Assembly: GCA_965365165.1 (NCBI GenBank)
Contig: CBDUAP010000001.1
Span: 1-55,114 of the forward strand
Source: an uncultured Flavobacteriaceae bacterium
GTDB lineage: Bacteria; Bacteroidota; Bacteroidia; Flavobacteriales; Flavobacteriaceae
Reading direction: 5' to 3'
DNA length: 55,114 bases
Numbering within the stretch: position 1 is the stretch's first letter; each line of letters starts with the position of its first letter. Below, piece by piece: positions 31,391 through 55,114 of the stretch. Both the position numbers and the translations under genes were made by a program. Below the pieces are notes generated by a model. It searched no databases, was not told the origin of the DNA, and saw nothing but the letters and a program-made list of their open reading frames with translations.

Positions 31391-31423
31391 AAGCATTCAC
31401 AACATCATGTGAATGCTTTTTTT
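31391..31423. terminator. Terminator between the convergent thioredoxin gene and hutU
   Basis: AAGCATTCAC/GTGAATGCTT stem plus Ts. Confidence 0.8.
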
Positions 31424-33446: not shown

Positions 33447-33458
33447 GTCAAGAGGGAT

Positions 33459-35006: not shown

Positions 35007-35075
35007 AATAATAAATTTGCTTCTATCAAATTTACGATTATATTTGATGCTTTATAATACCATTATAATTAATTA

Positions 35076-35096
35076 TTGATAACTATGAGTAATCAA
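35076..35096. promoter_or_regulatory. LysR-type T-N11-A dyad
   Basis: TTGAT-AACTATGAGTA-ATCAA overlaps the LysR start codon; divergent -7 boxes at 35027-35034 (-) and 35039-35046 (+). Confidence 0.6.
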
Positions 35097-35978: not shown

Positions 35979-36070
35979 GGCATCATGATTTTTCCCCTTA
36001 AAGGATAACCGATTTTGATACCACGCAAAAGGTTTTTTTAACGTATTTTTGATCAAAATAATTGATATCC

Positions 36071-36979: not shown

Positions 36980-36980
36980 A

Positions 36981-38042
36981 ATGTTAGAAATAAGAAAAGA
37001 GGTATTGGCAGCATTTCTTCCTGACAGAAAAATAATGGCTGTTAAAGAACTTACCTCAGGACATATTAACGACACTTTTCTGGTCAAATCAAATGACGGG
37101 TTCCAATCTGTGGTTCAAAAAATCAATAAGGGTGTTTTTAAGGATGTCCCGGGCTTGGTCAGGAACAAGGTTCTCGTAAGTCAGTACCTTCATTTGCAAA
37201 TGCCTGAATTGTCGAAGCAAGAGAGGCAAAGAAGGATTTTGACATTTCTGCCAACGGTTTCAGGGGCCTACCATTTTGAAGATGATCGGGGCGATTTTTG
37301 GAATGCCATGATCTATATTGATCAAAGTCAAACTTTTGACATTGTCCGTGACAAAACCATCGCCTATGAAGGCGGAAAGCTGTTTGGGGAGTTTTTAAAC
37401 CTGACAGAAGGTTTTGATACCTCAACATTGATTGAATCTATTCCCCATTTTCACGATATGTCTTTCCGGTTTTCACAGTTTGAGCACGCGCTGAAAAAAG
37501 CTTCTGCAGACAGACTTGAAAACTCAGACTCAGTGATCAAGAAAGTTTGGCTGCTGAAAGAAGAGATGCATATTTTACAGCACCTGAAGGAACAAGGCAA
37601 GATCAGGCTCAGGGTGACGCACAACGACACCAAAATTTCAAATGCGCTTTTTGATTTACAGGGCAGGGGCCTTTGTGTCATTGACACCGATACCATTATG
37701 CCGGGGATTGTCCACTATGATTTTGGAGATGCCATCAGGACAATTTGTAATTCAGCTGCGGAGGACGAAAGGGATCTCGAACGGGTATATTTCAAAAAAG
37801 ACCTGTATGAGGCCTATGCCCGCGGCTTCCTTGAAAAGGTGGGTGGCTCAATTACAGATTTGGAAAGGAAATACCTTCCCCTTGGGGCCAAGACCATGAC
37901 CTTTATTATGGCCTTACGCTTTTTAACGGATTATTTGAATGGAAACATTTATTATAAAACCAAATACCCTGAACATAATTTAGACAGATCTAAGAATCAA
38001 TTAAAGCTGATTCAAAGTTTTTCCGAAAAAATTAGCGTTTAA
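36981..38042 (+). CDS. APH-fold anomeric sugar kinase (N-acetylhexosamine 1-kinase-like)
   Basis: GHINDTF, QKIN, HNDTKISN, IDTDTIMPG, DFGDAIRT, RFLTDYL. Confidence 0.8.
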   Translation: MLEIRKEVLAAFLPDRKIMAVKELTSGHINDTFLVKSNDGFQSVVQKINKGVFKDVPGLVRNKVLVSQYLHLQMPELSKQERQRRILTFLPTVSGAYHFEDDRGDFWNAMIYIDQSQTFDIVRDKTIAYEGGKLFGEFLNLTEGFDTSTLIESIPHFHDMSFRFSQFEHALKKASADRLENSDSVIKKVWLLKEEMHILQHLKEQGKIRLRVTHNDTKISNALFDLQGRGLCVIDTDTIMPGIVHYDFGDAIRTICNSAAEDERDLERVYFKKDLYEAYARGFLEKVGGSITDLERKYLPLGAKTMTFIMALRFLTDYLNGNIYYKTKYPEHNLDRSKNQLKLIQSFSEKISV

Positions 38043-38189
38043 TAGCAGGTGGATTTTTAAAAGAATAGTTGGAGAATACTGGTTTAAAATTTGTTTTGAG
38101 TACAGGAGAAATAACATTCAAACTGAAATAACCTTGTACAAATCATCATTTCAAAATGCAGATTTTAGAGAAGTCAAAAAAAAACAAAG

Positions 38190-40481: not shown

Positions 40482-40495
40482 ATAATTTTTATACA

Positions 40496-43069
40496 ATGAA
40501 ATATACCCAGCTTGCTTTAATCATTTTTTTACCCATTTTTTTAAATGGACAGGAAATGAAATACCCTTTTATGGACGACAAACTAGACCCTAATGAAAGG
40601 GTTAATGATCTTATCAAAAGATTGACACTTGAAGAAAAGGTAAGTCAGATGCAGGATGTAGCCCCTGCCATTGATCGATTGGGCATACCTCAATACAACT
40701 GGTGGAATGAATGTTTGCACGGGGTGGCGCGCGCCGGAAATGCAACTTCTTTTCCACAGGCCATCGGCATGGCTGCCACCTGGAACACGGAACTGATTCA
40801 TGAAGTAGCAGACGCCATCAGTACCGAGGCCCGGGCCAAATTTAATCATAGCGTGAGTTTAGGTCAGCGAAATAGATATCAGGGTCTCACCATGTGGACG
40901 CCAAATATCAATATTTTCAGAGACCCCAGGTGGGGCCGTGGGCAGGAAACTTATGGAGAGGACCCTTTGCTGACCTCTAAACTGGGTGTCGCCTTTGTAA
41001 CAGGCTTGCAAGGGAACGACCCTGATTATTTTAAGGTCATTGCCACACCCAAACATTTTGCTGTGCACAGCGGCCCTGAATTTAACAGGCACTATTTTGA
41101 TGCCTATACCGATAAAAGAGACCTTTGGGAGACTTATTTACCGGCTTTTCGGGCCACTGTTGTTGAAGGAAAGGCCTTTTCGGTGATGTCAGCCTATAAT
41201 CGTTATTTAGGAGCTTCAGCCACCGCCAGCCCGCTGCTGCTGGATGAGATCCTGAGAAAGCAATGGGGGTTTGAGGGTTATGTCGTTTCTGATTGTGGTG
41301 CTGTTGCGGATATTTATATGTATCACAAAATTGTTCCTACTGCTGAAGAAGCAGCAGCTTTGGCCGTAAAATCAGGTTGTGACCTGAATTGTGGTGATAC
41401 CTATTCACATTTGACCAAAGCCGTTGAAAAAGGTTTGATCGAAGAAAAAGAAATTGACCTGGCCATAAAAAGATTGTTTTTGGCCAGGATCAAACTGGGC
41501 CTCCTGAATATTCCGGACAGAATACCCTTTGCTGAGATATCAGGGAATTCACTTGAATCAGAGACGCATCAGAAGCTTGCCCTGAAAACCGCCAGAGAAT
41601 CGATTGTCTTGTTAAAAAACGAGAACAATACCCTTCCCATATCAAAATCAGTTAAAAAAATTATGGTGATTGGGCCAAACGCTAATGACAGGCAGTATTC
41701 GCTGGGAAACTATTTTGGAACACCCACTTTTAGTTCAACAATTTTAGAGGGCATCGAAAAAAAGGTGTCTGAAAAAACAGAAATAAGTTATTTTAAAGGG
41801 ACCAACCTGACAGATACAAATACGATTTTCGACGTGATTGGCCCAAACAGTTTTAAGGGTCGCCTGAAGGTGGAATATTTTGACAATTCAGGCTTTGAAG
41901 GAGAGGCAGTAGTGACCGAAGAAAAGGAATTCATTGATTATGACTGGGGAGGAGCCGTACCTCATGGCGTGCTGACCCCCGGAAAGTTCTCCGTAAGGTA
42001 TTCAGGGGTGCTACAGGCAGATTTTAAAGGGAACATATTGTTGGGTATCCTTGAAAAGGGCGGATCCTACAAATTGTTTGTTGATGACCAGGAAGTTCTG
42101 GCCGGATCCGGAGGAAATGCCATTGAGATAGAGTCAAGTGAATTTAGCCTGGAAAAAGGAAAGAAATATAAAGTAGTTCTTGAATACAGTTGTAAGAATC
42201 CATGGGAGTCGGCCATTCAGCTTCTTTGGAATCAGGAGGCTCTTAAAGGGAAGGATGAGATGATGAAACAGGTAAATCAGAGCGATATCATCTTTTATGT
42301 TGGTGGCATATCGGCACGGGTGGAAGGAGAAGAAATGCCCGTGGTAATTGATGGATTCAACAAAGGAGACAGGGTTCATATGAAACTTCCTGAGGCACAA
42401 TTGAATTTGTTAAAAGACTTACATGCCACAGGAAAACCGGTTGTATGTATTGTGGCCTCGGGCAGTGCCCTGGCCTTGAATTGGGAAAAGGATCATCTGC
42501 CTGCTTTATTGCACATATGGTATCCCGGGCAGGCCGGTGGAGCGGCTGTTGCCGATATCCTTTTTGGAGATTACAACCCCTCGGGGAAATTACCGGTGAC
42601 TTTTTATAAATCGATTGATGACTTGCCGCCCTTTGAAGATTATCACATGAAAGGAAGGACCTATCGATATTTTTCAGGAGAGGTCTTGTATCCTTTTGGA
42701 TACGGACAGAGTTACACCAAATTTTCTTATTCAAAACCTGAATTGGGCAGTCCTTCTGTGGCAATGGGTGAAAAGGTTAAGGTGAAGGTAAAGGTGTCAA
42801 ATGTTGGTGATTTTGACGGACAAACTGTTGTTCAACTATACGTCAAAGATATCGAAGCTTCAGTCGTCAGACCCATTAAATCTTTGCGTCATTTTAAAAA
42901 AATCTATTTGGCCAAAGGCAAATCCGAAGAAGTTGAATTTGAATTGACTCCGAAAGACCTGTCTGTTTTTGATGATAACGGGCAGCCATTTGTTGAAAAG
43001 GGTTACTTCGAAATATCGATAGGTGAAGATTCGTCAACAGGAAATAAGGTTATGCTGGAGGTCATTTAA
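40496..43069 (+). CDS. GH3 beta-glycosidase (xylosidase/glucosidase type) with PA14-like insert and Fn3-like domain
   Basis: WWNECLHG, RDPRWGRGQETYGEDP, KHF, VSDCGA nucleophile, EGEE, PFGYG. Confidence 0.93.
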   Translation: MKYTQLALIIFLPIFLNGQEMKYPFMDDKLDPNERVNDLIKRLTLEEKVSQMQDVAPAIDRLGIPQYNWWNECLHGVARAGNATSFPQAIGMAATWNTELIHEVADAISTEARAKFNHSVSLGQRNRYQGLTMWTPNINIFRDPRWGRGQETYGEDPLLTSKLGVAFVTGLQGNDPDYFKVIATPKHFAVHSGPEFNRHYFDAYTDKRDLWETYLPAFRATVVEGKAFSVMSAYNRYLGASATASPLLLDEILRKQWGFEGYVVSDCGAVADIYMYHKIVPTAEEAAALAVKSGCDLNCGDTYSHLTKAVEKGLIEEKEIDLAIKRLFLARIKLGLLNIPDRIPFAEISGNSLESETHQKLALKTARESIVLLKNENNTLPISKSVKKIMVIGPNANDRQYSLGNYFGTPTFSSTILEGIEKKVSEKTEISYFKGTNLTDTNTIFDVIGPNSFKGRLKVEYFDNSGFEGEAVVTEEKEFIDYDWGGAVPHGVLTPGKFSVRYSGVLQADFKGNILLGILEKGGSYKLFVDDQEVLAGSGGNAIEIESSEFSLEKGKKYKVVLEYSCKNPWESAIQLLWNQEALKGKDEMMKQVNQSDIIFYVGGISARVEGEEMPVVIDGFNKGDRVHMKLPEAQLNLLKDLHATGKPVVCIVASGSALALNWEKDHLPALLHIWYPGQAGGAAVADILFGDYNPSGKLPVTFYKSIDDLPPFEDYHMKGRTYRYFSGEVLYPFGYGQSYTKFSYSKPELGSPSVAMGEKVKVKVKVSNVGDFDGQTVVQLYVKDIEASVVRPIKSLRHFKKIYLAKGKSEEVEFELTPKDLSVFDDNGQPFVEKGYFEISIGEDSSTGNKVMLEVI

Positions 43070-43100
43070 AAAAGGAACTGTTTTTTAGAATTTGTCTAAA

Positions 43101-43191
43101 GCATTAGTAACAAACATATAAATTGATTATTGAAAATAACATACTGAAGGCACTTAGGGCAATCCTTATTGCACTAACCGTTAGTGGTCAT
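43101..43191 (+). repeat. attC-like degenerate spacer element 1
   Basis: Left ATTAGTAAC pairs with right GTTAGTGGT; right end CCGTT-AGTGGTC-AT with GTT 27 nt before the ATG. Confidence 0.5.
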
Positions 43192-43206
43192 TAAAACCAT
43201 CCAATT

Positions 43207-44382
43207 ATGAAGAAAATATTAATAGTTTGTACACTTATTCTCATTTGCGCTCAATCATATGGTCAAAAACCCAGAGCAAGAGATTTAGGAATCCCATTTG
43301 TCGGTAAAACAGGTGAATTTAATGCCATTACAGATGTGAAAGGTGTCGAGGTTGGATACAGCACAATTATATCCGGTGAAGGAGAAAATATCATAGGCAA
43401 GGGTCCAGTACGAACAGGTGTTACAGCAATATTTCCAAGAGGGAAAGCTAAGAAATTCAGTCCGGTTTACGCCAATTGGTATAGCCTGAATGGCAACGGG
43501 GAAATGACTGGTACCACATGGGTAACGGAATCAGGTTTTCTTGAAACCCCTGTTATGATTACTAATACTAACAGTGTTGGAGAAGTAAGACAAGCCGTTT
43601 TGAGATGGTTTGTTGATACCGATTGGTACAGTGGTGAAGATTGGTGGTACACATATCCTGTAGTGGCAGAGACATATGATGGTTTTCTGAATGATATCTA
43701 CGGATTTCACGTGAAGGAAGAACACGTATTGGAAGCCATCCACAATGCGTCGAACGGTAAAATAGAAGAAGGGAATGTTGGTGGTGGAACCGGGATGTTA
43801 ACTTTGGGTTTTAAGGGAGGGACTGGAACTTCATCAAGGGTTTTTAAAATTAAAGATTCAACATTTACTGTTGGAGCTATAGTGCAATCCAATTTTGGAG
43901 CAAAAAGGAATTTATCAATTGCTGGTGTCCCTGTTGGGATTGAGTTAAAGGACACCTTAAACTATGAATTTAAGTCACCTCCAAAATCGAGGAGGCAGGA
44001 AGGCGATGGTTCTATTATAGTAATAGTAGCAACAGATGTACCTCTTTTACCACATCAATTAAAAAGAATAGCCCAGAGAATTCCTTTAGGAATCGGCATT
44101 GTTGGAGGACGAGGAAGTAACGGCTCTGGTGATATTTTTTTGGCTTTCTCCACTGCAAATGAGAAGGCGTTTAATCGTGATGAAATGACAGTTGTTGAAA
44201 CAATGTCCAATGACTTGCTCATGCCGGTTTTTGAAGCAACTGTACAAGCCGTTGAGGAAGCGATTATTAATGCTATGGTGGCTGCTGAAACGATGGAGGG
44301 AATCAATGGAAATAAGGGGTTTGCCTTGCCTCACGATTTGCTCGTGGAAACATTAAAAAAATATAATCGAATTAAAAAATAA
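43207..44382 (+). CDS. DmpA/P1-family (Ntn-like) aminopeptidase, secreted
   Basis: RARDLGI, NAITDV.GV.VG, NGNGEMTG, EGNVGGGTG, GSII, NGSGD; signal peptide. Confidence 0.92.
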   Translation: MKKILIVCTLILICAQSYGQKPRARDLGIPFVGKTGEFNAITDVKGVEVGYSTIISGEGENIIGKGPVRTGVTAIFPRGKAKKFSPVYANWYSLNGNGEMTGTTWVTESGFLETPVMITNTNSVGEVRQAVLRWFVDTDWYSGEDWWYTYPVVAETYDGFLNDIYGFHVKEEHVLEAIHNASNGKIEEGNVGGGTGMLTLGFKGGTGTSSRVFKIKDSTFTVGAIVQSNFGAKRNLSIAGVPVGIELKDTLNYEFKSPPKSRRQEGDGSIIVIVATDVPLLPHQLKRIAQRIPLGIGIVGGRGSNGSGDIFLAFSTANEKAFNRDEMTVVETMSNDLLMPVFEATVQAVEEAIINAMVAAETMEGINGNKGFALPHDLLVETLKKYNRIKK

Positions 44383-44501
44383 CGTGATACAAGATTGTAT
44401 AATCGCAAGTAAGACGGATTCGAACAGAACTGAATGAACCGATAAAATAATCCCTAAATTAACTTGCAACTAATGGTTTTACGAAAACCTTTAACAATAA
44501 A
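44381..44501 (+). repeat. attC-like degenerate spacer element 2
   Basis: Starts in the stop codon; GTATAATC/GGTTTTAC and GCAAGT/ACTTGC nested arms; eroded right end CC-TTT-AACAATA-AA. Confidence 0.45.
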
Positions 44502-44502
44502 A

Positions 44503-46089
44503 ATGATAACTGCCATGTATAAACTACTATTATTAATTCTGCTGATACCTCACTTTTGCTTCTCTCAATCAAAAGTAAGTTCACAATTCATAGATTCCTT
44601 GGTAAATGTATCAATGAACCAATTTCCTCAGGCTGGAATTGCAATTGCAGTTATAGAGGATGGAGCATTATCTCACATAAAAGGTTATGGCATCTCTTCT
44701 GCTATAACTGGTAATAAGGTTGATGAAAACACTCTTTTTGCAATTGCTTCCAACAGTAAAGCGTTTACAACTACTGCATTGGGCATATTGGCTGATCAGG
44801 GAAAGCTTTCATGGGACGACAAGGTAATTGAATACATTCCCGAGTTTAAAATGTATGATCCATATATCACAAAAAATTTCACCATCGTTGATTTATTAAC
44901 GCATAGAAGTGGATTAGGTCTGGGTGCAGGTGATTTAATGTTCTTCCCTGACGGATCAAGTTTTACCATAGATGATGTCTTACGCAGTTTTCAGTTTCAA
45001 ACTCCTGTTTCAGATTTTAGGACCAAATATGATTATGACAATCTATTGTATGTAGTTGCTGGAGAAGTAATTAAAAGAGTTAGCGGTAAAGCTTGGGACA
45101 AGTTTGTCCAGGATGAAATAATGGGCCTGCTGGGCATGGAAAATTCTGTAGGGATTTATCAAAATATCAGTAATAACTCTAATGTTGCCTTCCCCCATAC
45201 CAGTGAAAATCAAAAAATTGAGCAAATCGACGTGTTTATCAAAAATGATGGTTCCCTTGGAGCAGCAGGAGGTATTTATTCGAACGTAAGAGATATGAGC
45301 AAATGGGTGCTCATGCATTTAAACGAAGGACTATTTGGAGAGAACCTGACAGACACTTTGATCTCAAAAAAGAATCACAGGGAACTTTGGAAGATCCACA
45401 CCAATCGATCTTATAATGCATTTGGAGGAGGAATGTACAATACTCATTACAGGGGGTATGGTCTGGGTTTTAATTTGAGAGATGAAAAGGGTTATACCGT
45501 TGTACAGCACTCTGGGGGTTTGCCGGGGATGCTTTCCATGGTTACGATGATACCCGAATTAAAAGCAGGAATCATTGTGCTGACCAATGCATCTCCAGGT
45601 GGATTAAGTTTGGTTACGCTGACAAATGAAATAAAGGATGAGATCTTGGAAGCGGAGGGGATAAATTGGTTAGAATGGGCCGAATCCAGGTTAAATGAAT
45701 CTTCAACCCATGCAGACTCAGTGATTAATGCAGTTTGGGAACAAGTCAAAAAGAATAAAGGCAAAACGCCTGAATTGAATTTTTTCACAGGAGTTTATGA
45801 AGATAATTGGTTTGGAGAAATGGAAGTATATCAGCAGGACAATCAATTATGGATAAAATCTAAAAAATCCCCCAAGCTTAGAGGCCCTATGTATTATTAC
45901 AATGCCAACACATTTGCTGTAGACTGGGAATATTCAAGAGATTCTGGAGTTGACAATTATGACGCTTTTGCCATATTTCAATTGGATGAAACGGGGAAGG
46001 CAATATCCTTTCGAATGAAAGGAATATCACCCATTATTGATTTTAGTTACGATTTTCAGGATTTAGATTTTAAAAGGAAAGGTAAATAA
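44503..46089 (+). CDS. Serine hydrolase (beta-lactamase/PBP fold) with DUF3471-like C-terminus
   Basis: SNSK (SxxK), YDN, HSG; signal peptide; start 44503 or 44515. Confidence 0.88.
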   Translation: MITAMYKLLLLILLIPHFCFSQSKVSSQFIDSLVNVSMNQFPQAGIAIAVIEDGALSHIKGYGISSAITGNKVDENTLFAIASNSKAFTTTALGILADQGKLSWDDKVIEYIPEFKMYDPYITKNFTIVDLLTHRSGLGLGAGDLMFFPDGSSFTIDDVLRSFQFQTPVSDFRTKYDYDNLLYVVAGEVIKRVSGKAWDKFVQDEIMGLLGMENSVGIYQNISNNSNVAFPHTSENQKIEQIDVFIKNDGSLGAAGGIYSNVRDMSKWVLMHLNEGLFGENLTDTLISKKNHRELWKIHTNRSYNAFGGGMYNTHYRGYGLGFNLRDEKGYTVVQHSGGLPGMLSMVTMIPELKAGIIVLTNASPGGLSLVTLTNEIKDEILEAEGINWLEWAESRLNESSTHADSVINAVWEQVKKNKGKTPELNFFTGVYEDNWFGEMEVYQQDNQLWIKSKKSPKLRGPMYYYNANTFAVDWEYSRDSGVDNYDAFAIFQLDETGKAISFRMKGISPIIDFSYDFQDLDFKRKGK

Positions 46090-46155
46090 TGTGTTTCAAT
46101 TACTTAAATCGGATAGAAAATGATATTATCAAGTCCGTTAAACTTCATTTAATTA

Positions 46156-46507
46156 ATGATAAAATTCTTTAGTTGAATTGCGTAACGACCTAACACAAGA
46201 CATTAAATTAATCAGAGAAAGGCTTCCATTTATTGAAGAACAATATAATTTGAATGAGTCTTTGAGAGCAAGAGTAGCCAATCCAAATGCGACCGTTGAT
46301 ACCCTCATTCAAATAATGAGATTTGAATTTAACCCAAACTGGGTCATACAAATTCCTTACAATACAAATGCGTACAATAGCCTGATTCAAAAAGGATTAA
46401 TTGAAAACCTAGCTGACCCTTTAAAAGTCAGTATTAAGAATTTCTACAGAGGAGAGAGTTTTTGTTTACTTCTTTATGACTCTCAACAACCATTGATATT
46501 CACTTGA
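46156..46507 (+). pseudogene. Deleted and frameshifted DUF6090-like gene remnant
   Basis: ATG ATA AAA TTC TTT AG (MIKFF) joins out of frame to LVELRNDL...AYNSLIQKGLI.NL...LK.SIKNFY. Confidence 0.6.
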
Positions 46508-46594
46508 ATTAACTACTTTAGTGTCTAGGTAATCAATCAATACTGATTGATAACAACCTTCATGCACTTACCCCTGTGTGTAATGCTAAAAAAG

Positions 46595-47008
46595 ATGAAA
46601 TATAGGATGCGAACCATTTTATTATTAATTGTTTTAAGTCTGAATTCTATCGTTTACGGACAGCAAGATGAAAGAATTAGCACAATTGATTTTGTGCAGA
46701 TATTGAATGAAAATAAAGCAGAAGCTTATTATTACTATCAGAATAACTGGAAAGCGCTTAGAAATAGGGCTTTGGAAAATGATTATATACATTCATTTCA
46801 AATATTGGAAACACCTTTCACTGAGGAGGATCCTTTTCAATTGATGCTGATAACAACATACGCCAATAAAGAACAATATGACTTGAGAGAAGATCACTTC
46901 AGGACATTGATTCAAGAGGCGGGAGCATTGAAGCTGATGAATGAGAAAAAACCGGGTGAATTTAGAAAAACCCTATTCAGCAAGGAAAATGTAGGTCATT
47001 GGAAATAA
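46595..47008 (+). CDS. Secreted hypothetical protein
   Basis: Signal peptide; EAYYYYQNNWKALR...LITTY; A-rich start context. Confidence 0.7.
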   Translation: MKYRMRTILLLIVLSLNSIVYGQQDERISTIDFVQILNENKAEAYYYYQNNWKALRNRALENDYIHSFQILETPFTEEDPFQLMLITTYANKEQYDLREDHFRTLIQEAGALKLMNEKKPGEFRKTLFSKENVGHWK

Positions 47009-47010
47009 AA

Positions 47011-48330
47011 ATGAAACGATATAGATTAACCTTACTGGTGTTTTTACTCATCAGTATTTCTTCATGCAGGAAGCAGAATGGGAACAATGAAACCAGACCT
47101 AATATTATTATTTTTTTCACTGATGATCAGGGTTATGCAGATGTAGGCTCTTATGACGCTAAAGGATTTGACACCCCGCATTTGGACCTGCTGGCATCCG
47201 AAGGCATCAGGTTTACCAATTTTTATGTACCTGCCACGGTTTGTACGCCTTCAAGAGCAGGGCTGCTGACCGGCCGTTATCCTAAAAGATATGATCTTCA
47301 TGAGGCTGTTCTTTTCCCATTTTCAAATGAAGGCCTCCCTGCCAAAGAATATACCTTGGCAGAAATGCTTAAGGAAAGAGGCTATAGCACCTCATGCATC
47401 GGGAAATGGCATTTGGGCCATAAAGAGGAATTTATGCCCATAAATCATGGTTTTGAGAAATTTTATGGTGTTCCTTACTCAAACGACATGGATAATTATT
47501 ATTATAAAGGAATTGATTTTCAATCGCCACCACTTCCTCTGTACCGAAATGCAGAATTGATAGAAAGTGGGCCTGACCAACAGTTCCTGACAAAAAAATA
47601 TACAGAAGAAGCCATTAGCCAAATAAGGAATCGGGGGGAGAAACCATTTTTTATGTACCTGGCACACAATATGCCCCATACCCCGCTTCATGCTTCACCA
47701 TCTTTTCAAGGCAAAAGCAAAAAAGGTCTTTACGGTGACGTGATCATGGAATTGGATTGGAGTGCCGGTGAAATCATAAGGGTATTGAAGGAAGAAGGCA
47801 TCTATGAAAACACTATTTTTATTTTCACTTCTGATAACGGCCCCGAAGTTGGCTCAGCAGAACCGCTTAGAGGCCGAAAAGCCCAAACATGGGAAGGCGG
47901 TCAGCGTGTTCCGGGAATCATTGCATGGCCGGATAAAATACCCAAAGGTATCGTTAGTGATGAAATTGTGAGTACCCTGGACTTGTTTCCGACTTTGGCT
48001 AAAATCTCATCTTCAAAGATTCCCGAAGGTTTGATAATGGATGGGACAGACATTAGTGGCGTTTTATTGTCTCCTGAAAACGTAAAACTACCCGAACGTC
48101 CAATCTATTTTTACGCCAGAAATGGCGATTTAGAAGCTATCCGTCTCGGGAAATGGAAACTTCACCTAAAAAAATCAGGGGGATGGGACGAAAAAACTGA
48201 AGGTATTTTTCAAGGAGCACTATATAATCTGGATCTTGATATTGCTGAAAAAAAGAATGTGGCAAGTCAATTTCCAGAGGTTGTAAAGAAACTGACAACT
48301 ATATTGGAGGCCTTTGATGATAGCTTATAA
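47011..48330 (+). CDS. Formylglycine-dependent (S1) sulfatase, lipoprotein
   Basis: PNIIIFFTDDQG, CTPSRAGLLTGRYP (Cys-type), GKWHLG, SDNG, EGGQRVP. Confidence 0.94.
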   Translation: MKRYRLTLLVFLLISISSCRKQNGNNETRPNIIIFFTDDQGYADVGSYDAKGFDTPHLDLLASEGIRFTNFYVPATVCTPSRAGLLTGRYPKRYDLHEAVLFPFSNEGLPAKEYTLAEMLKERGYSTSCIGKWHLGHKEEFMPINHGFEKFYGVPYSNDMDNYYYKGIDFQSPPLPLYRNAELIESGPDQQFLTKKYTEEAISQIRNRGEKPFFMYLAHNMPHTPLHASPSFQGKSKKGLYGDVIMELDWSAGEIIRVLKEEGIYENTIFIFTSDNGPEVGSAEPLRGRKAQTWEGGQRVPGIIAWPDKIPKGIVSDEIVSTLDLFPTLAKISSSKIPEGLIMDGTDISGVLLSPENVKLPERPIYFYARNGDLEAIRLGKWKLHLKKSGGWDEKTEGIFQGALYNLDLDIAEKKNVASQFPEVVKKLTTILEAFDDSL

Positions 48331-48402
48331 AATAGAAGGGTTCCTGTCATATGGCTCCCAAAATTAGACTAAACTGAAGCATATAATTCAAGAATTAAAA
48401 TC

Positions 48403-49674
48403 ATGAAAAATTTTAAAGTACTAATATATCTTTGCATAATGCTCTTATTGCAAGGATGCAGTGAATCTACCGGAAAAACGGAGGAGTTTTTAAGCAAGAA
48501 TTTAGACCAGTGGCTGGCTAAGGAAGTAGGGAAAAGAGAATCATTGGAAAGCCTTGAATTTGCTAAGGAAGCCCTGACAAAAAGCCAGGCAGAGAATGTA
48601 TTGGACCTGCTCTATGCAGACAAACAAGCAAGAATGGTAAAGGATTATGAATCGGAATGGGACAATGGCTCATTGAGTTTTAAGGGTTACACCATGCCTT
48701 TTTATTACAATATTTTCGGGGACAAACCTTCAGACGGAAGAAGTTTGTTTATCTCCCTTCATGGAGGTGGTGGAACAACGGCCGAAATGAATGACCAGCA
48801 ATACAACAATCAAAAGCATTTATATGATGCTGCCATGGAGAGCCTTGAAGGGGTGTACCTTTCACCACGAGCTCCAAGCAACACATGGGACTTATGGCAT
48901 CAGGATCACATCGATGATTTTCTGAATATCATCATACAAATGTCGGTCATTAAGCTAAATGTAAACCCGGATAAAGTTTATCTTCTGGGTTATTCGGCCG
49001 GGGGTGATGGCGTCTATCAATTGGCCCCAAGAATGGCTGATCGATGGGCAGCGGCCTCTATGATGGCCGGACACCCGAATGACGCATCGCCCTTGGGGTT
49101 GAGAAATACTCCTTTTGCAATCCATATGGGGGAATTAGACGATCCTTATGATAGAAATAGCGTAGCCAGGCAATGGGGGGAGGAACTTGACAATTTACAG
49201 CTCGAGGATCCTCAGGGCTACATACATGATGTTCAAATTCATGAAGGGCTGGGCCATTGGATGGAACTAAATGATGCGGTTGCTCTGGCATGGATGAAAG
49301 CTTATCAGCGCAAGCCTGTTCCTCAAAAAGTGGTGTGGAAACAGGACAACAGGCATCACAAAAGCTTTTACTGGTTGGGAATGCCTGAAAACAAGATTAA
49401 AGACGGTGATAAAATTGTAGTGGAGTACAATACAGGCCTCAATGAAATCAACATCATTGAAAACTCAGGTGACACGATTCAGTTATGGATGAATGATGAA
49501 ATGCTGAATTTAGAAAATCCCGTAACGATCAGATATCAGGGGAATGTCATAGCACAGAAGATTTTTAAGAGGTCGATTTTAAATATCTACCAGAGCATGA
49601 ATCACAAGGGTGATCCTGAGTTGTCTTTTCCTTGTGTGGTAACGGTAATCAACAATGAAGAAATCCTTGAGTAA
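48403..49674 (+). CDS. Alpha/beta-hydrolase (esterase-like) lipoprotein
   Basis: Lipobox LQGC, LHGGG, GYSAG nucleophile elbow, GELD, GHW. Confidence 0.8.
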   Translation: MKNFKVLIYLCIMLLLQGCSESTGKTEEFLSKNLDQWLAKEVGKRESLESLEFAKEALTKSQAENVLDLLYADKQARMVKDYESEWDNGSLSFKGYTMPFYYNIFGDKPSDGRSLFISLHGGGGTTAEMNDQQYNNQKHLYDAAMESLEGVYLSPRAPSNTWDLWHQDHIDDFLNIIIQMSVIKLNVNPDKVYLLGYSAGGDGVYQLAPRMADRWAAASMMAGHPNDASPLGLRNTPFAIHMGELDDPYDRNSVARQWGEELDNLQLEDPQGYIHDVQIHEGLGHWMELNDAVALAWMKAYQRKPVPQKVVWKQDNRHHKSFYWLGMPENKIKDGDKIVVEYNTGLNEINIIENSGDTIQLWMNDEMLNLENPVTIRYQGNVIAQKIFKRSILNIYQSMNHKGDPELSFPCVVTVINNEEILE

Positions 49675-49824
49675 TCAACGAACCTCCTTTTATGCCACTG
49701 GTACTTTCCCGAATTCAAGGTTTTATTCTGATCTGAAGAACAACAGTATAAATTCGCTTAAGATAATTCAAAGTGAACTTGTTCAAAGAGCCAACTGAGG
49801 CTGTTGATTGTGATTTAAATTACT

Positions 49825-49968
49825 AACGAAAGCATAACACCGTGTATAATTATGACTTGGGTCTGTGTTCTCATGTCATCCGACAGATTTTACTAAGGTT
49901 CGGATTGTATTTGCTAAATTAGATGCTTAAACAAGGAACTCATCTTTTACAAAGCCGTTGTGTTCTAT
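49825..49968 (+). repeat. attC-like spacer element, best-preserved copy
   Basis: AGCATAAC(49831)/GTTGTGTT(49957) outer arms, TGTATAA/TTTTACA inner arms, further ATGA/TCAT and CTTG/CAAG pairing. Confidence 0.6.
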
Positions 49969-50002
49969 TCATATTTGATGAGCATGATTTTAAAGTTAAA
50001 AC

Positions 50003-50452
50003 ATGAAAACATTAACATCCATATGCATACTATGTCTTTTACTTGCCTGCTCTGAAAACAGATTATCGAGAGTGGATTTTATTATAGGCACGTGGAAAAT
50101 GGAAGGAAAAGAGCAATATGAAAATTGGGAATTATCCAATAACAAAGAACTCATTGGATATTCATATAAGTTTAAGGATGGTCAAAAAATAATTACTGAA
50201 ACTCTTGCTATAAAAATATTGGAAAATACAGTCATTTTTGAAGCTACCGTTCCAGACCAAAATGAGGGAAAAACAATTACGTTTATTTTAAATAATGAAA
50301 TTAAAGACTATTTATCATTTGAAAATATGGACCACGATTTTCCAAAAAAAATTCAATACAAAAGAATAAGTGAAAATGTAATTGAAGTTACTGTTGCAGG
50401 AGATAAGGGCGAAGGGTTTTCTTACAGGCAAGTAAAACAAAGCACAAAATAA
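50003..50452 (+). CDS. DUF6265-like lipoprotein
   Basis: Lipobox LLAC, GTW, YENW, VPDQN, FENMDHDFPKKIQY. Confidence 0.8.
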   Translation: MKTLTSICILCLLLACSENRLSRVDFIIGTWKMEGKEQYENWELSNNKELIGYSYKFKDGQKIITETLAIKILENTVIFEATVPDQNEGKTITFILNNEIKDYLSFENMDHDFPKKIQYKRISENVIEVTVAGDKGEGFSYRQVKQSTK

Positions 50453-50514
50453 CAGCATTCAGCATTGTTTAAAAAGGCATTAAAAAGGTTTATAAACCAT
50501 CTGTTGTTAGAAAT
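50451..50514 (+). repeat. attC-like short spacer element
   Basis: Starts in the stop codon; GTTTAAAAA/TTTATAAAC inner arms; right end CTGTT-GTTAGAA-AT. Confidence 0.5.
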
Positions 50515-50576
50515 TTAAATAAAAATTTGTAACAAAACAGCAGACCCAAAGACCTATTGGTCATCAATTAATTTCT

Positions 50577-52265
50577 ATGAACCATTTTTTTAAAAACGTA
50601 ATTTGGGCATTCTTAATTGCTTCTGCCTTCAGCACCTATGCTCAACACAGCAATAAAGGAGTTTTTGATATATCCGAAACAGAGCGTAAAATTGATTCTT
50701 TATTTGGCGATTATGAAAACGAACCCGGAATTTCAATCGGAATTGTTTTTGGTGATTCCTTGATTTTTCAAAGACAATACGGACTCGCAAATTTGGAATA
50801 CAATATTCCTATAACCAATAAAACTTCTTTCCATGTCGCCTCTGTTTCAAAACAATTTACGGCTTTCGCTATTTTATTGCTTGAAAGAGATGGAAAGTTA
50901 TCGTTAGAGGATGATATACGAAAGTATATTCCCGAAATGAAGGTAAAAAACAAAAAAATATCTATTCAAAACCTTTTAAATCATACAAGTGGCTTAAAAG
51001 ACCAATGGAATTTATTAAGGCTTGCAGGTTGGCGGCTCGACGATATGATTTCGAATGAGCAAGTGTTAAACCTTATTTACAATCAGCAAAGTTTAAATTT
51101 TTCACCAAACGATGACTTTATGTATTGTAATTCAGGATATACGCTTTTGGCTGAAATAGTTTCGAGATTATCCGACATGTCATTTGCCGATTTCGCTCAA
51201 CAAAGAATATTCGCCCCGATCGGAATGAACAATACCGCATTTATAGATCAGGAAGGAATGGTGATACCCCATAGGGCACTCTCTTATTATAAAGAAGGAA
51301 ATGTTTACAGAGAAGACATGTTCAACAATACAAGCGTTGGTGCAACAAACTTATCTACAACGATCGAAGATTTAAGTAAATGGGCTCTTAACTTTAACAA
51401 ACCAAAAGCAGGCACAAATGAAATATTTGAAAAAATGGCGGAGCTTCATTATTTAAACAATGGGGAAAAGATAAATTATGGCTATGGTCAGGTTATTGAT
51501 ACATACAAGGGGGTTCCCAGAATTTCGCATAGCGGTTTAGACGCAAGTTATCAGGCGTATATCGGCAGGTTTCCGCAGCAACAAATCAGTTTGCTCTTAG
51601 TTTCGAATAATTCTTCAATAAATGGAGGAAGAACCGTACAACAACTCACAGAAATCTGTTTGAAAGGCCATTTAAAGATGGCTCCCGGAAAAAACAATGA
51701 GAAAGAAAGGATAACTAAGTCACCTGTTAAATTAAGCAACAAGGATCTTAAAATTTATCAGGGCCATTACTGGAATAAAAAAGACAGGTATTCAAGACAA
51801 ATCGTATTCGAAAATGACACATTGTATTATGCAAGAGAAAATGGAAACAAAACAGGATTAGTCCCTGTAGGCCGTTCTGAATTTGAAATGACGGGAGATG
51901 AATATATTTCTGTTGCTTTTAAGGATAATGGCTTGACCTTAATGTTTGATGATGGTTATACGATTGAATTCCAAAAGTATGTGCCGGCAAATCATAATTC
52001 AGACAGTTTGTCAGAATTTAAAGGAAAATATTTCTCTAAGGAATTGAATACTTTTTATTCTTTTAATGTTAAAGACGGGCTATTAATAGCAAATCATCAA
52101 AGGCTTGGAGACTTTAAATTAAAGCCGATTATGAAAAATTACTTTTTAGGATCAGGTTCATTCCGGGAGATTAATTTTACAAGAGATTCTATGGAAAAGA
52201 TTATTGGCTTTGAGGTTTCGAGCAGTAGGGCAAAAAATATTTTATTTGAAAAAATAAAGGAATAA
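50577..52265 (+). CDS. Serine hydrolase (beta-lactamase/D-aminopeptidase fold)
   Basis: SVSK, LLNHTSG, YCN, HSG; signal peptide. Confidence 0.9.
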   Translation: MNHFFKNVIWAFLIASAFSTYAQHSNKGVFDISETERKIDSLFGDYENEPGISIGIVFGDSLIFQRQYGLANLEYNIPITNKTSFHVASVSKQFTAFAILLLERDGKLSLEDDIRKYIPEMKVKNKKISIQNLLNHTSGLKDQWNLLRLAGWRLDDMISNEQVLNLIYNQQSLNFSPNDDFMYCNSGYTLLAEIVSRLSDMSFADFAQQRIFAPIGMNNTAFIDQEGMVIPHRALSYYKEGNVYREDMFNNTSVGATNLSTTIEDLSKWALNFNKPKAGTNEIFEKMAELHYLNNGEKINYGYGQVIDTYKGVPRISHSGLDASYQAYIGRFPQQQISLLLVSNNSSINGGRTVQQLTEICLKGHLKMAPGKNNEKERITKSPVKLSNKDLKIYQGHYWNKKDRYSRQIVFENDTLYYARENGNKTGLVPVGRSEFEMTGDEYISVAFKDNGLTLMFDDGYTIEFQKYVPANHNSDSLSEFKGKYFSKELNTFYSFNVKDGLLIANHQRLGDFKLKPIMKNYFLGSGSFREINFTRDSMEKIIGFEVSSSRAKNILFEKIKE

Positions 52266-52359
52266 AAAACAAACAGAGCACCAAAACTTATTGATCCGAA
52301 GGTTGACAACAACCTTTACAGATGGAATCTTTGATTGGTTTGTCTTTTATTCAAGTTGA

Positions 52360-52389
52360 GAGTGCTCTATCAAATGATCTAGAGCACTC
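52360..52389. terminator. Stem-loop between convergent genes
   Basis: GAGTGCTCTA/TAGAGCACTC 10-bp stem; second hairpin AAGGTTG/CAACCTT at 52299-52316. Confidence 0.55.
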
Positions 52390-52448
52390 AAGTTTTCCTG
52401 ATTTATTGAACTCCTCGTACAGCTAAAATTCCTGTTGCGGCTTTTAAT

Positions 52449-52820
52449 TTAGTTCCTTTCAAATCCAAAAACTTTTGGAGCAAAAGTGGCATTTAATCCC
52501 ATGCCGATTGCAGCTTGTTTCATCTCTTCAGGAATATCACCACAGAATAAAAATTCTCCGGGAACGGCTATTTTCAGTAAATTTTCGAAATGCCCCGCTG
52601 CAGTGGTTCCTAAATGAAAGCCCACCGCATTGGCATCTGAAAAAAGATCCATAACGACCAGGGCAGATGATGATTCTTCAAAATAGCATTGAACCTTTAA
52701 TGCTCCCGGTTCATTAGCATTCATTTGGCTTTCTACCTCTTTGTATATCGCCTTTAATTCTTCTGAGTTTCCTTCTTTGGCAGTCCATTTATATACTACC
52801 ATTACTTCTTGATTTGTCAT
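52449..52820 (-). CDS. Small ABM-like (dimeric alpha+beta barrel) protein
   Basis: VVYKWTAKEG...ANEPGAL...FHL pattern; TATCTTTG box at 52852-52859 (-). Confidence 0.65.
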   Translation of the reverse strand: MTNQEVMVVYKWTAKEGNSEELKAIYKEVESQMNANEPGALKVQCYFEESSSALVVMDLFSDANAVGFHLGTTAAGHFENLLKIAVPGEFLFCGDIPEEMKQAAIGMGLNATFAPKVFGFERN

Positions 52821-52955
52821 AATTATTGTTTTTTTATAATTGATTACACTACAAAGATATGTCTATAATGTATACTTAACAGGTGTCATTTTAGACTATT
52901 TACAGGGTTGTTTACGACAAGATATTTTTATACCTTTGCCAATAATCCTTATATT

Positions 52956-53948
52956 ATGAAACATATCAGTATCATCGTCCCTGTAGGAAGCAGCATTGTC
53001 GATACCATTATTGCACCGTTTAATTTGTTCAAAATGGCAAACACTTATCATCAGCGATTAAATAAATTGGCTGAACCATTGTTCGCCATTGATCTGGTTG
53101 GCATCAATGAAGACCCGGTTACCTATCAAAACCTATTTACGATAAACCCTACGGCAAGTATAGAATCTGTGCGGAAAACGGATTTGATCATTATATCTCC
53201 AATCAGTGGAGATCTCGAAAGAGGTGTAAATGTCAACAAAAGCTTTGTAAACTGGATAAAGAAACAGCGTATTGTGAATGATGCAGAGTTAGCAAGTCTT
53301 TGTAAAGGCGCGTTTCTTCTGGCCGAAACAGGATTGGTGAATGGAAAGAATTGTGCGACACACTGGACGGCTCATGAATTATTCAGGCGAAAATATCCTG
53401 AAGTAAAACTGGTTCCTGAAAGCATCATATGTGAAGACAATGGGATTTATTCAAGTGGAGGTGCTTACTCTATCCTCAACTTCACCCTGTATCTGATCGA
53501 GCGATATTTTGGAAGGGAAACGGCGATCTGGACATCAAAGATTTCGGAGGTAGAATACGATCGGGTTAGTCAGCTTGAATTCATCGTATTCAGCGGGCAA
53601 AAGGAACACTCGGATGAGCCCATCAAAACGGCCCAGGAATTCATTGAGAACAACTATGAACAAAAACTCAATATCGAAGCCATTGCAGAGCGTGTTCATC
53701 TGAATGGCAGAAGTTTTCTGCGAAGGTTTAAAAAGGCTACTTCCAACACGCCTCTTGAATACATACAACGGGTGAGGATTGAGGCGGCAAAAAAGAAGCT
53801 TGAATCTACGACGAACACTATTACTGAGGTGATGTACAGCATAGGTTACTTGGATGAAAAAGCATTTCGAGGCACCTTTAAAAAACATTCGGGAATGTCT
53901 CCGAAAGAATACCAAATGAAGTATAACAGAGAAATGGCATATGCCTGA
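52956..53948 (+). CDS. GlxA-family AraC regulator (DJ-1/PfpI plus HTH)
   Basis: SLCKGAFLLAETG, ATHW, SSGG, AraC HTH; TACCTTTG box at 52931-52938 supports the 52956 start. Confidence 0.92.
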   Translation: MKHISIIVPVGSSIVDTIIAPFNLFKMANTYHQRLNKLAEPLFAIDLVGINEDPVTYQNLFTINPTASIESVRKTDLIIISPISGDLERGVNVNKSFVNWIKKQRIVNDAELASLCKGAFLLAETGLVNGKNCATHWTAHELFRRKYPEVKLVPESIICEDNGIYSSGGAYSILNFTLYLIERYFGRETAIWTSKISEVEYDRVSQLEFIVFSGQKEHSDEPIKTAQEFIENNYEQKLNIEAIAERVHLNGRSFLRRFKKATSNTPLEYIQRVRIEAAKKKLESTTNTITEVMYSIGYLDEKAFRGTFKKHSGMSPKEYQMKYNREMAYA

Positions 53949-54031
53949 ATTTGAAAGAAACTAATCCGGACTATAAAGAAATAAAAATGCCAATCGCCCT
54001 CTTTTCAAACTCTTGGTCACAATAAGCAAAA

Positions 54032-54925
54032 ATGAAAAAATTATTATTAACTATTTTTATATTACTAAGTTGCAATTCACTTTTTTCCCAAACTGAGCAT
54101 AACATTAAAAATGCCGGCAATATTATACATTTAAAAGTGTACGGGGAGGGAGCACCTTTATTGATCATCAATGGCGGCCCCGGTATGAACAGTAATGGTT
54201 TTATACCACTTGCCCAAAAATTAGGAGCATCAAACAAAGCAATTATTTATGACCAAAGAGGAACAGGGTTGTCCAAAATATCCTCATTAAATTCAAGGAC
54301 CATAACCCTCGATTTAATGGTTGAGGACATTGAGATGATACGGGAATTTCTAAAGATCGATAAATGGGTAATATTAGGACATTCATTTGGAGGGATGCTT
54401 GCTTCTTATTATGCTTCTGAACACCCTAACAGGGTTAAAGGGCTTATTCTATCTTCTTCAGGAGGAATTGACATGGAATTATTCTCAAGAATTAATATCA
54501 CTTCCAGACTCACAAAAAAACAAAGAGACTCGTTAAGTTTCTGGAACGATAAAATTTCAAAAGGAGATACGACTTATTATACCAGGCTGCAAAGAGGAAA
54601 ATATTTAGCTCCGGCCTATCTTTATAATCAAGTGAATGTTCCGATTGTAGCTGAAAGGTTGACACAGGGAAATACAATGATTAACCGATTGGTTTATCAA
54701 AACATGAGAAAAATCGATTTTGATTGTTCGGAAGGATTAAGAAGCCTGGAAGCACCTGTTTTAATTATTCAGGGGAAAGAAGATATTATCGATAAAGCGA
54801 CTGCAGAAAAAGCGATGCATGTTTTTCAAAATGCAAGCCTGGTTATTCTTGAAAATTGCAATCATTATGGTTGGCTCGACAGGCCAAAAGCATATTTTGA
54901 AAGCATAGATAACTTTTTGAAGTAA
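54032..54925 (+). CDS. Alpha/beta hydrolase (proline iminopeptidase-like), secreted
   Basis: NGGPG, YDQRGTGLS, GHSFGG, QGKED, CNHY. Confidence 0.87.
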   Translation: MKKLLLTIFILLSCNSLFSQTEHNIKNAGNIIHLKVYGEGAPLLIINGGPGMNSNGFIPLAQKLGASNKAIIYDQRGTGLSKISSLNSRTITLDLMVEDIEMIREFLKIDKWVILGHSFGGMLASYYASEHPNRVKGLILSSSGGIDMELFSRINITSRLTKKQRDSLSFWNDKISKGDTTYYTRLQRGKYLAPAYLYNQVNVPIVAERLTQGNTMINRLVYQNMRKIDFDCSEGLRSLEAPVLIIQGKEDIIDKATAEKAMHVFQNASLVILENCNHYGWLDRPKAYFESIDNFLK

Positions 54926-54969
54926 AGCCGGATTACTAGCTTGATCCAGATACGGACCGTTTCTGCAAA

Positions 54970-54989
54970 CCTGCCCGTCCGGCAGGCGG
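54970..54989. repeat. GC-rich REP-like palindrome
   Basis: CCTGCCCGTCCGGCAGGCGG, with a CCTGCC/GGCAGG stem, in an AT-rich intergenic region. Confidence 0.45.
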
Positions 54990-55114
54990 ATTTGATATTC
55001 AAAAAAAAGTATTAATTTCGTGGAAGTTGTTTTGTTCATATGAAAAATTACACCTTAAATGATTCTACAGACTCTGCGGAGCAGTTTTCCAAGTCCTTGG
55101 AATTTTTGCTTCCG

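Follow-up and report, generated by a model that had tools for sequence, protein, structure and literature searches.

A worn gene-cassette array in an uncultured Flavobacteriaceae bacterium, probably derived from an integron-like capture system of Bacteroidota

The stretch of DNA analyzed here (the window) comprises 55,114 nucleotides (nt) from an uncultured Flavobacteriaceae bacterium (GenBank assembly GCA_965365165.1, contig CBDUAP010000001.1, positions 1 to 55,114). Its downstream part holds a run of genes for a peptidase, hydrolases, a sulfatase and other proteins, separated by spacers with recurring ends (Table 1), which an earlier account based on the letters alone (the sequence-only reading) took for an eroded integron-like cassette array lacking a local integrase. 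Our analysis suggests, with a probability of about 0.8, that the region is a decayed stand-alone cassette array belonging to a gene-capture system of Bacteroidota whose mode of action is likely that of an integron. Two parts of this reading differ in strength: the window is very probably a remnant of a cassette system found intact in relatives, and, judging from the sites, that system probably uses folded bottom strands.

Table 1. Sites, genes and boundaries of the cassette run, in window coordinates
Feature	Position	Strand	Remarks
GH92 + GH3 glycosidase pair	38190..43069	+	Marks the upstream end of the array and is no recombinase; G016 has this pair immediately ahead of the 141-amino-acid (aa) cassette
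Worn site S1	43109..43193	+	Right half contains the GTT (43180); left half doubtful
Cassette gene, peptidase S58 (DmpA-like), 391 aa	43207..44382	+	
Worn site S2, internally shortened	44391..44492	+	Core AAC worn to AAG, GTT worn to TTT
Cassette gene, serine hydrolase (PF00144 + DUF3471), 528 aa	44503..46089	+	
Worn site S3	46098..46150	+	GTT at 46137, profile 5.0; left end inferred; start typical of DUF6090 cassettes
DUF6090 cassette pseudogene	46156..46448	+	Has lost its 5' part between two microhomologies of 10 nt, and its 3' part as well
Site S4, right part	46498..46585	+	CCT at 46573 is a worn GTT
Three-gene block without internal sites	46583..49674	+	141-aa unknown protein, sulfatase (47011-48330), 423-aa alpha/beta-hydrolase-like protein
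Site S5, sole complete site, 124-nt class	49836..49959	+	Covariance model E 7e-5; left and right profiles 18.1 and 16.8
Cassette gene, DUF6265 lipoprotein-like, 30% GC	50003..50452	+	
Worn site S6, 45-nt class	50461..50505	+	Ranks first with the short-class model (E 0.13); scores 40 against the library (p 0.016)
Cassette gene, second serine hydrolase (PF00144), 562 aa	50577..52265	+	
Worn left end, absent from the sequence-only reading	52308..52330	+	Scores 6.7 with the left profile (p 0.002) and 42 against the library (p 0.012)
Divergent two-gene module	52449..53948	both	ABM monooxygenase-like (minus, 52449-52820) and DJ-1/AraC regulator (plus)
Candidate worn site S8, weakest of the set	53969..54024	+	CTT at 54012
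Last cassette gene, alpha/beta hydrolase, 297 aa	54032..54925	+	
Repetitive extragenic palindromic (REP)-like palindrome and start of next backbone gene	54969..55114	+	Downstream boundary of the array

Sites were assessed with profiles, with 95 intact sites serving as a library and with a pair of covariance models, and the outcome is graded from site to site; the training sites include near-copies from related genomes. All seven right-end strings listed in the sequence-only reading are present where it placed them. Their strict form, C[CT]GTT-R-N6-AT, occurs at four of the seven window sites and upstream of only 9 of the 1658 other genes of the same genome (0.5%); the looser GTT-R-N6-AT lies upstream of 110 of those 1658 genes. 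Scored with a right-end profile built from 52 intact sites of relatives, for which the genome-wide best-per-gene 95th and 99th percentiles are -2.3 and 3.3, the sites at 43180, 44490, 46137, 46573, 49957, 50503 and 54012 gave 6.9, -7.0, 5.0, 2.5, 16.8, 4.2 and -5.3, respectively. Site S2, at background by profile, is rescued by its homology to an intact site class (library score 50, the maximum of 250 control spacers being 45), and the left end that follows the S58 gene, worn in the window at 44391, is intact or nearly so in the orthologues of two relatives (G019 and G041; G numbers denote individual genomes). Site S4 is rescued by the G016 orthologue, which has a GTT in register with 46573 and whose homology begins just past that GTT; a conspecific strain carries one extra T at 46573. 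For S1 the right end scores well (p 0.006), its library alignment is non-significant and the short-class covariance model gives E 9.3. The sequence of S8 is itself at background, by profile and by library score (26.5, p 0.78), and its context consists of a site downstream of the same AraC gene in G007 and G016 and of an intact site with a similar start before 1 of 13 homologues of the next gene. On this evidence S2, S3, S4 and S6 are supported, S1 in its right half and the site at 54012 only by context. Of the seven spacers, one contains a complete site (S5), five are backed by profiles or orthologues, and that at 54012 is weak. The array is real, though more eroded than the sequence-only reading suggested.

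End-to-end covariance-model matches in the window are confined to 49836-49959 and, weakly, 50461-50505, neither of which still folds into a full site hairpin. The former is the best of three such matches in the whole genome, while four relatives have 14-56 and a fifth has none. Of four left ends proposed to follow (T/C)AAC-N3-5-GTATAA, the strict form is found once in the region (49835), and the TAAC strings within the stop codons at 44380 and 50450 are not cores, the worn cores lying 10-11 nt further on (44391 and 50461). Used as a sole criterion, the strict left-end pattern has 34 matches genome-wide, mostly intragenic, and was rejected. The AAC at 46552 was likewise rejected as a left end and is better read as part of the right arm.

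The system to which these sites very probably belong is found intact in the same genus. An 88% identical S58 orthologue in the complete genome G019 lies 45 kb into a long co-oriented run headed by a tyrosine recombinase gene, and the same plan is seen in G010, G007, G016, G021, G022 and G041. The intact platform consists of the recombinase gene, an attI-like half site at a GTT and co-oriented cassettes between hairpins of 45-210 nt. Each site runs from an AAC through three unpaired bases into a stem that begins at a TAT-containing hexamer, then through a variable middle, a complementary arm and five to six unpaired bases to a GTT. The conserved core letters are AAC and GTT+R only, the remainder being variable and complementary per cassette. 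Of the 95 library sites, 10 measure 40-59 nt, 70 measure 110-129 nt and 15 are longer, and the sites of this family closely match those at named Flavobacteriaceae loci. RpoD of the host genome, 72-73% identical to Bacteroidota proteins, places the host in that phylum, and the resemblance of the sites points to Flavobacteriaceae. The suggestion of a flavobacterial cassette system with its own site consensus, decaying in the window, is thus borne out by intact arrays and a dedicated recombinase within the genus.

By a protein search at E 1e-50, the recombinase is present in 16 of 24 genus genomes and in none of 16 genomes of other families of the order; by a profile at E 1e-75, it is present in 113 of 150 family genomes. 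One strict site pattern was matched in 79 of these 150 genomes, and its reversed control in 1. As to co-occurrence of recombinase and sites, a check named in the sequence-only reading, genomes with at least six site matches are all recombinase-positive (19 versus 0), whereas simple presence is only loosely linked.

Several features of individual arrays in relatives may be recorded here. The recombinase gene of G019 (C1:1171172-1172491) is broken, with one stop in the matched part, and its array is still intact over the first ~15 kb; site quality in this array drops with distance over ~40 kb. In G054 (L251, C2:965000-984999) three DUF6090 genes are inverted within the array, against the usual co-orientation. 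In G010 (L057, C11:227000-228200) gene-less cassettes of ~254 nt stand in tandem, repeated four times, and many cassettes nearby resemble toxin-antitoxin pairs by the starts of their open reading frames. Related recombinases outside Flavobacteriaceae (L171, from Ignavibacteriota, L149 and L148) are followed by repeats with AAC...CCGTTA ends, some of them GC-rich (guanine and cytosine) and longer.

The position of the putative exchange can be judged from cassette boundaries in these arrays. Across 67 pairs of consecutive sites, the seven bases after the GTT are complementary to the seven before the next AAC at a mean of 5.87/7. Shuffled controls average 2.74, with none of 5000 shuffles exceeding 3.45, and the flanks on either side of a single site match at 2.9/7. 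The first base after the GTT is already downstream-cassette sequence (0.91 match). Behind the recombinase gene stands a half site, a GTT without a left end and mostly 30-64 nt past the recombinase stop; 18 such loci were examined, and in the 15 that could be called (3 gave no call) the first cassette matches the half site at 7/7 in 10, at 6/7 in 2 and poorly in 3. The half sites of G019 and G041 are identical and, after the GTT, share GG and then diverge into different first cassettes, while those of G021 and G003, also followed by different first cassettes, are one base apart before the GTT. By these data the exchange falls within the GTT/AAC core or at its edge, with G|TT indistinguishable from other positions in the triplet. 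Gain and loss with breakpoints at G|TT had been set as a test, and the boundaries in relatives do fall at the GTT core; the sole within-species case in the window, described below, lies off G|TT.

The sites also show a strand bias. Of the 18 pairs in the consensus stem, 14 have changed on both sides, in an alignment covering 30 of the 46 distinct long sites. Folded with DNA parameters, the bottom strand is the more stable in 78 of the 95 sites and the top strand in 13, and stem mismatches that read A.C on the top strand (G.T on the bottom) outnumber the reverse by 95 to 4, or by 72 to 4 over 65 distinct stems. An unbulged stem is best in 90/95 sites and the consensus stem has no conserved bulge. 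In integrons, extrahelical bases of attC direct strand choice (PMC2727003). The flavobacterial sites thus look like single-strand substrates without the extrahelical bases that have this role in attC.

The recombinase of the intact arrays measures 374-432 aa and has intact catalytic residues. It lacks the IntI insertion: the catalytic Arg is 89-90 aa from the HxxRH motif, versus 131 in an IntI, and IntI4 residues ~199-236 are unmatched. Array-linked copies score best with NF040815 and fall below the cut-off of TIGR02249 (integron-integrase), and the best sequence matches are archaeal XerA proteins. In a quick tree of 53 rows they form a mostly Bacteroidota clade (Shimodaira-Hasegawa-like approximate likelihood ratio test, 95), separate from the IntI clade (100) and grouping with Bacteroidales recombinases of the rAID type discussed below. 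An extra N-terminal domain of ~75-95 aa is modeled with a predicted local distance difference test (pLDDT) score >90 over residues 11-70 in the full model. In the G016 recombinase (L059:1922-2149) this is a predicted alpha/beta domain, with a weaker domain-only model (pLDDT 62) whose structural neighbors are the XPB N-terminal region (Z 6.8), T4 UvsW (6.5), MotA (5.0) and SMARCAL1 HARP (3.6), all below the trust threshold of Z 8; Foldseek gave no significant match for the domain. Folds of the XPB/UvsW/MotA type sense distorted or forked DNA. The domain also has weak DUF5710 matches in 3/8 proteins and appears shortened in rAID-type proteins.

No integrase is encoded in the window, as had been stated. 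The host genome contains two full tyrosine recombinases only, both of XerC/XerD size, and no IntI above the cut-off. Its sole trace of the cassette recombinase is a stop-riddled fragment at C85:2-112, 57-69% identical to the G016 and G012 proteins, which fits the earlier supposition that the recombinase is encoded elsewhere or lost; the locus of the intact G016 recombinase gene holds other DNA in the host genome. On C85 (2-11913) the contig opens with the fragment, behind which lies a worn run of co-oriented genes that includes one site at E 2.6. This run is probably the former main array. Contigs C114, C141, C167 and C220 carry more worn site halves and cassette-type genes, with DUF6090 in C141 and C220, and the worn half site and DUF6090 gene of C141 lie beside a tRNA gene, the locus at which G054 has a large intact array.

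The boundaries of the window array are given by comparison with G019, in which the GH92/GH3 pair and the array, a block of ~17 kb, are missing at the same spot. Relative to G019, everything from GH92 through 54.9 kb is extra DNA between an aminoglycoside phosphotransferase (APH)-family gene and the next backbone gene, and the array is therefore bounded and without recombinase. The DNA at 54969..55114 is 93% identical to G019 DNA 1.6 kb downstream of the APH gene. Fifteen of the 26 genus relatives with the APH gene were searched over 2.4-15 kb downstream of it, with the recombinase set of this analysis, and yielded no recombinase and no intact site pair; in G054 the same locus holds a recombinase-less satellite array in the opposite orientation. 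The DNA downstream of APH varies widely across the 15 relatives examined. Upstream, window positions 31422-43069 carry histidine utilisation genes, a LysR gene, a nucleotidyltransferase gene and the APH-family kinase gene, then GH92/GH3. The REP-like palindrome at the far boundary (54970-54990) has 14 pattern matches genome-wide, often by tRNA genes or contig ends, and in G007 it is inserted within otherwise intact sites. The array region has a GC content of 37.2% versus 40.0% upstream, with 3 of 11 genes slightly above 41%.

Orthologues of the S58 gene, 82-88% identical, occur in 5/24 genus genomes and lie within the eroded tails of the G019 and G041 arrays. The DUF6090 pseudogene is 78-88% identical at the DNA level to intact genes in G016 and G054; a stretch at 49675-49826 considered as its 3' remnant gave a single weak match (E 0.08) and was rejected. 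The three-gene block recurs in G016, where GH3 and one worn site precede it. The ABM/AraC module lies between intact sites in G007 and worn sites in another array of G016, and no sites were seen around it in G019, G041 and G043. The window genes recur in other arrays in different orders. They were described as unrelated and all on the plus strand, neither of which holds: the ABM gene inside the run is on the minus strand, and the two serine hydrolases are homologues (26% identical). Among serine-hydrolase homologues, the five (of eight tried) with flanks at hand have no clear sites and are too distant for breakpoint mapping.

In the scheme predicted for the system, the dedicated recombinase would act on a folded bottom-strand hairpin, cutting it at the GTT/AAC core, and would place the cassette in the half site immediately behind its own gene. 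The substrate would be single-stranded, with circular intermediates and replicative resolution, and the extra N-terminal domain may read the unpaired spacer, taking the place of the I2 helix of integron integrases. The window array is most likely no longer mobile, having lost DNA by ordinary deletion while some enzyme genes were kept.

A number of observations weigh against seeing an integron-like array here. The window has a single complete site, and its cassette starts and ends are complementary at a mean of 2.67/7 over six cassettes, which is chance level. A conspecific strain, seen in three sediment runs from two studies, joins 43086 to 46498 through 64 other letters; it has no S58 gene, first serine hydrolase or DUF6090 remnant, and neither breakpoint is at a GTT. 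Twelve of 13 homologues of the last gene have no site, as is the case for several S58 and serine-hydrolase homologues. Over the family genomes, recombinase and site pattern are associated loosely: 66 have both, 47 the recombinase only, 13 the site only and 24 neither (p 0.02, with kin not independent). The host genome is a draft (95% complete, 303 contigs), so an intact recombinase could be unassembled, and no recombination activity, circles or strand exchange were observed. We read the conspecific gap as an ordinary deletion in a dead array; it lends integrase-made turnover at this locus no support. Seven distinct runs examined as contigs, which drop rare forms, contained no circular or GTT-joined forms. 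One RNA run (X4) has near-identical contigs over parts of the region, and contigs from its oligo-dT library are no evidence of transcription.

One competing account is chance, holding that the window motifs are accidental matches in AT-rich spacers with no connection to the arrays of relatives. A pattern loose enough to take in all seven sites does match 153 of the 1658 genes (9%), 54012 and, by profile, 44490 are at background, and the complementarity within the window is that of chance. It is scarcely credible for the array as a whole, where the data refute it: S5 is the best covariance-model match of the genome, orthologues restore the worn cores at 44391 and 46573, and the DUF6090 and ABM/AraC modules are cassettes elsewhere. 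Chance may still explain 54012 and the left half of S1. The spacers might instead be REP-like or miniature inverted-repeat transposable element (MITE)-like repeats, or terminators or regulatory elements, that gather in accessory regions whose genes arrive by other means. A distinct REP-like palindrome is indeed frequent here and lies within some of the sites, and the indel within the window is off the GTT. In relatives, however, a cassette start complements its own end (5.9/7) and not the other flank of the same repeat (2.9/7), the half site behind the recombinase would go unexplained, and an Rfam scan of 40000-55114 found no family (only two chance matches overall). For the relatives this account is largely refuted, and we regard it as very improbable.

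Two further alternatives accept cassettes and differ in the machinery. The run could be a canonical cluster of attC sites lacking an integron integrase (CALIN), with true attC sites served by an IntI from elsewhere, as the shared AAC/GTT core and the bottom-strand bias would allow; yet the genome has no IntI above the cut-off, the array recombinases fall below the TIGR02249 cut-off and outside the IntI clade, and the stem is best unbulged in nearly every site, which leaves this account almost no weight. A closer competitor keeps the cassette system and has it work on double-stranded DNA, by the classical tyrosine-recombinase reaction in which strands are exchanged twice; the hairpin would then be a by-product, a cruciform or an RNA element. 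The I2 insertion and the extrahelical bases are said to block the second cleavage in integrons (PMC4792948), and here the recombinase has no I2 insertion, the sites have no extrahelical bases and the best matches are to archaeal XerA. Against this, the two arms, which are separated by 45-210 nt and have a variable middle between them, show the covariation of a stem, and the bottom, non-transcribed strand is favored, whereas an RNA structure of the top strand would favor top-strand G.U pairs. We consider a double-stranded reaction unlikely, and a single-strand cassette system, decayed in the window, remains the preferred explanation.

Comparison with described systems shows that this architecture has been published before, from gut Bacteroidales, as the recombinase-associated acquired interbacterial defense cluster, rAID-1. 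The accessible text of Ross et al. (10.1101/471110) describes, for 226/423 Bacteroidales genomes, a recombinase of the XerD family together with low-GC genes that run in one direction and intergenic repeats likened to integrons, a definition repeated by Azhieh et al. (10.1101/2025.05.03.651265). Common to that description and to the arrays considered here are a 5' tyrosine recombinase resembling XerD and, behind it, co-directional low-GC genes with repeated intergenic motifs. The published criterion asks for a 5' XerD-like recombinase more than 44% identical (E about 1e-100) to BF9343_RS08045; compared with two other rAID-type proteins, the flavobacterial recombinase is 45-46% identical over ~270 aa (E 1e-63 to 1e-65) and 40% over the full alignment. 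The window region has at least two co-directional downstream genes of no more than 41% GC, the three slightly higher genes noted above being the exceptions among 11, and its intergenic motifs share the same anatomy with other core letters. In the rAID-type clusters L139 (B. ovatus) and L140 (P. distasonis), the recombinases, 45-46% identical to the flavobacterial ones over the core, nest in the same clade, the hairpin sites measure ~43-45 nt, and cassette ends complement cassette starts at 6-7/7 in 7/10 and 4/8 cases. Differences lie in the right core (ATT in rAID-type clusters, GTT here), in the 110-210-nt site classes and arrays of tens of kb in Flavobacteriaceae, in the missing recombinase of the window, and in cargo: orphan toxin-immunity genes in rAID-1, versus hydrolases, lipoproteins, regulators (AraC), ABM, DUF6265 and DUF6090, as assigned by Pfam. 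The accessible parts of the rAID-1 accounts give no crossover point, strand bias or half site. On sequence grounds, the flavobacterial system is either the sister of rAID-1 or a wider form of it, carrying other cargo.

Like integrons and CALINs, the arrays have one gene per cassette, co-orientation, AAC...GTT cores, complementary cassette ends, a predicted bottom-strand hairpin with an unpaired spacer and a variable loop, integrase-less satellite clusters and, judged by eye, toxin-antitoxin-like pairs among the cassettes; the half site beside the recombinase in relatives, absent from the window, resembles attI. Unlike IntI, the recombinase has no I2 insertion, carries the extra N-terminal domain and is co-oriented with its array. 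Unlike attC, the sites have no extrahelical bases, a spacer of 3 nt versus 5-6 nt, a conserved TAT/ATA stem sequence, and ends that depart from the RYYYAAC/GTTRRRY heptamers. The sites are thus non-canonical and the recombinase is not IntI; in relatives, the system behaves like an integron on every sequence test run, and departs from one in the I2 insertion, heptamer consensus and extrahelical bases. As far as their accessible text goes, Cury 2016 (PMC4889954), who defined CALINs, does not mention Flavobacteria, IntegronFinder 2.0 (Neron 2022, PMC9024848) reports one complete integron in Bacteroidetes, in Salinibacter, Smyshlyaev 2021 finds the IntI insertion not fully conserved in an integron-like subgroup, and Ghaly 2021 lists Bacteroidota among phyla with integrons. 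Our literature search found neither this site anatomy nor flavobacterial arrays described, with subscription journals poorly covered and possible overlap with the rAID-1 motif logos.

A third point of comparison is tet(X). The adjacency of xerD/tnpF to tet(X) genes has been noted, with no cassettes or sites described in the accessible text (PMC7473080, PMC11194056). On Acinetobacter plasmids, tet(X3) has upstream of it a truncated recombinase that falls in the same clade (51% identity), and in L141:3632-5117 tet(X3) comes after this truncated gene and a sequence resembling a GTT half site and has an AAC left end behind it, with start-versus-end complementarity of only 4/7. It is an even question whether rAID clusters, Flavobacteriaceae arrays and the tnpF-tet(X3) unit form one phylum-wide integron-like family whose recombination acts on single strands in folded form and dispenses with the I2 helix and extrahelical bases, an N-terminal domain like the XPB damage-recognition domain (DRD), UvsW or HARP reading the asymmetric unpaired spacer. 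Such a family would be a parallel or ancestral solution to the chicken-and-egg problem of the integron I2 helix and extrahelical bases, and would be missed by the integron finders now in use. By present counts Bacteroidota have almost no integrons, and here this recombinase is found in three quarters, and one strict site class in about half, of the sampled family genomes. If the mechanism holds, it would explain many accessory-gene islands of marine and sediment flavobacteria, offer a concrete capture route for rAID immunity arrays and tet(X) neighborhoods, and provide a natural test of the need for I2 in single-strand cassette recombination, a question left open in the accessible text of PMC4792948. 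To these systems the window adds an end state, an orphaned array in which secreted-type hydrolases are kept while the sites erode.

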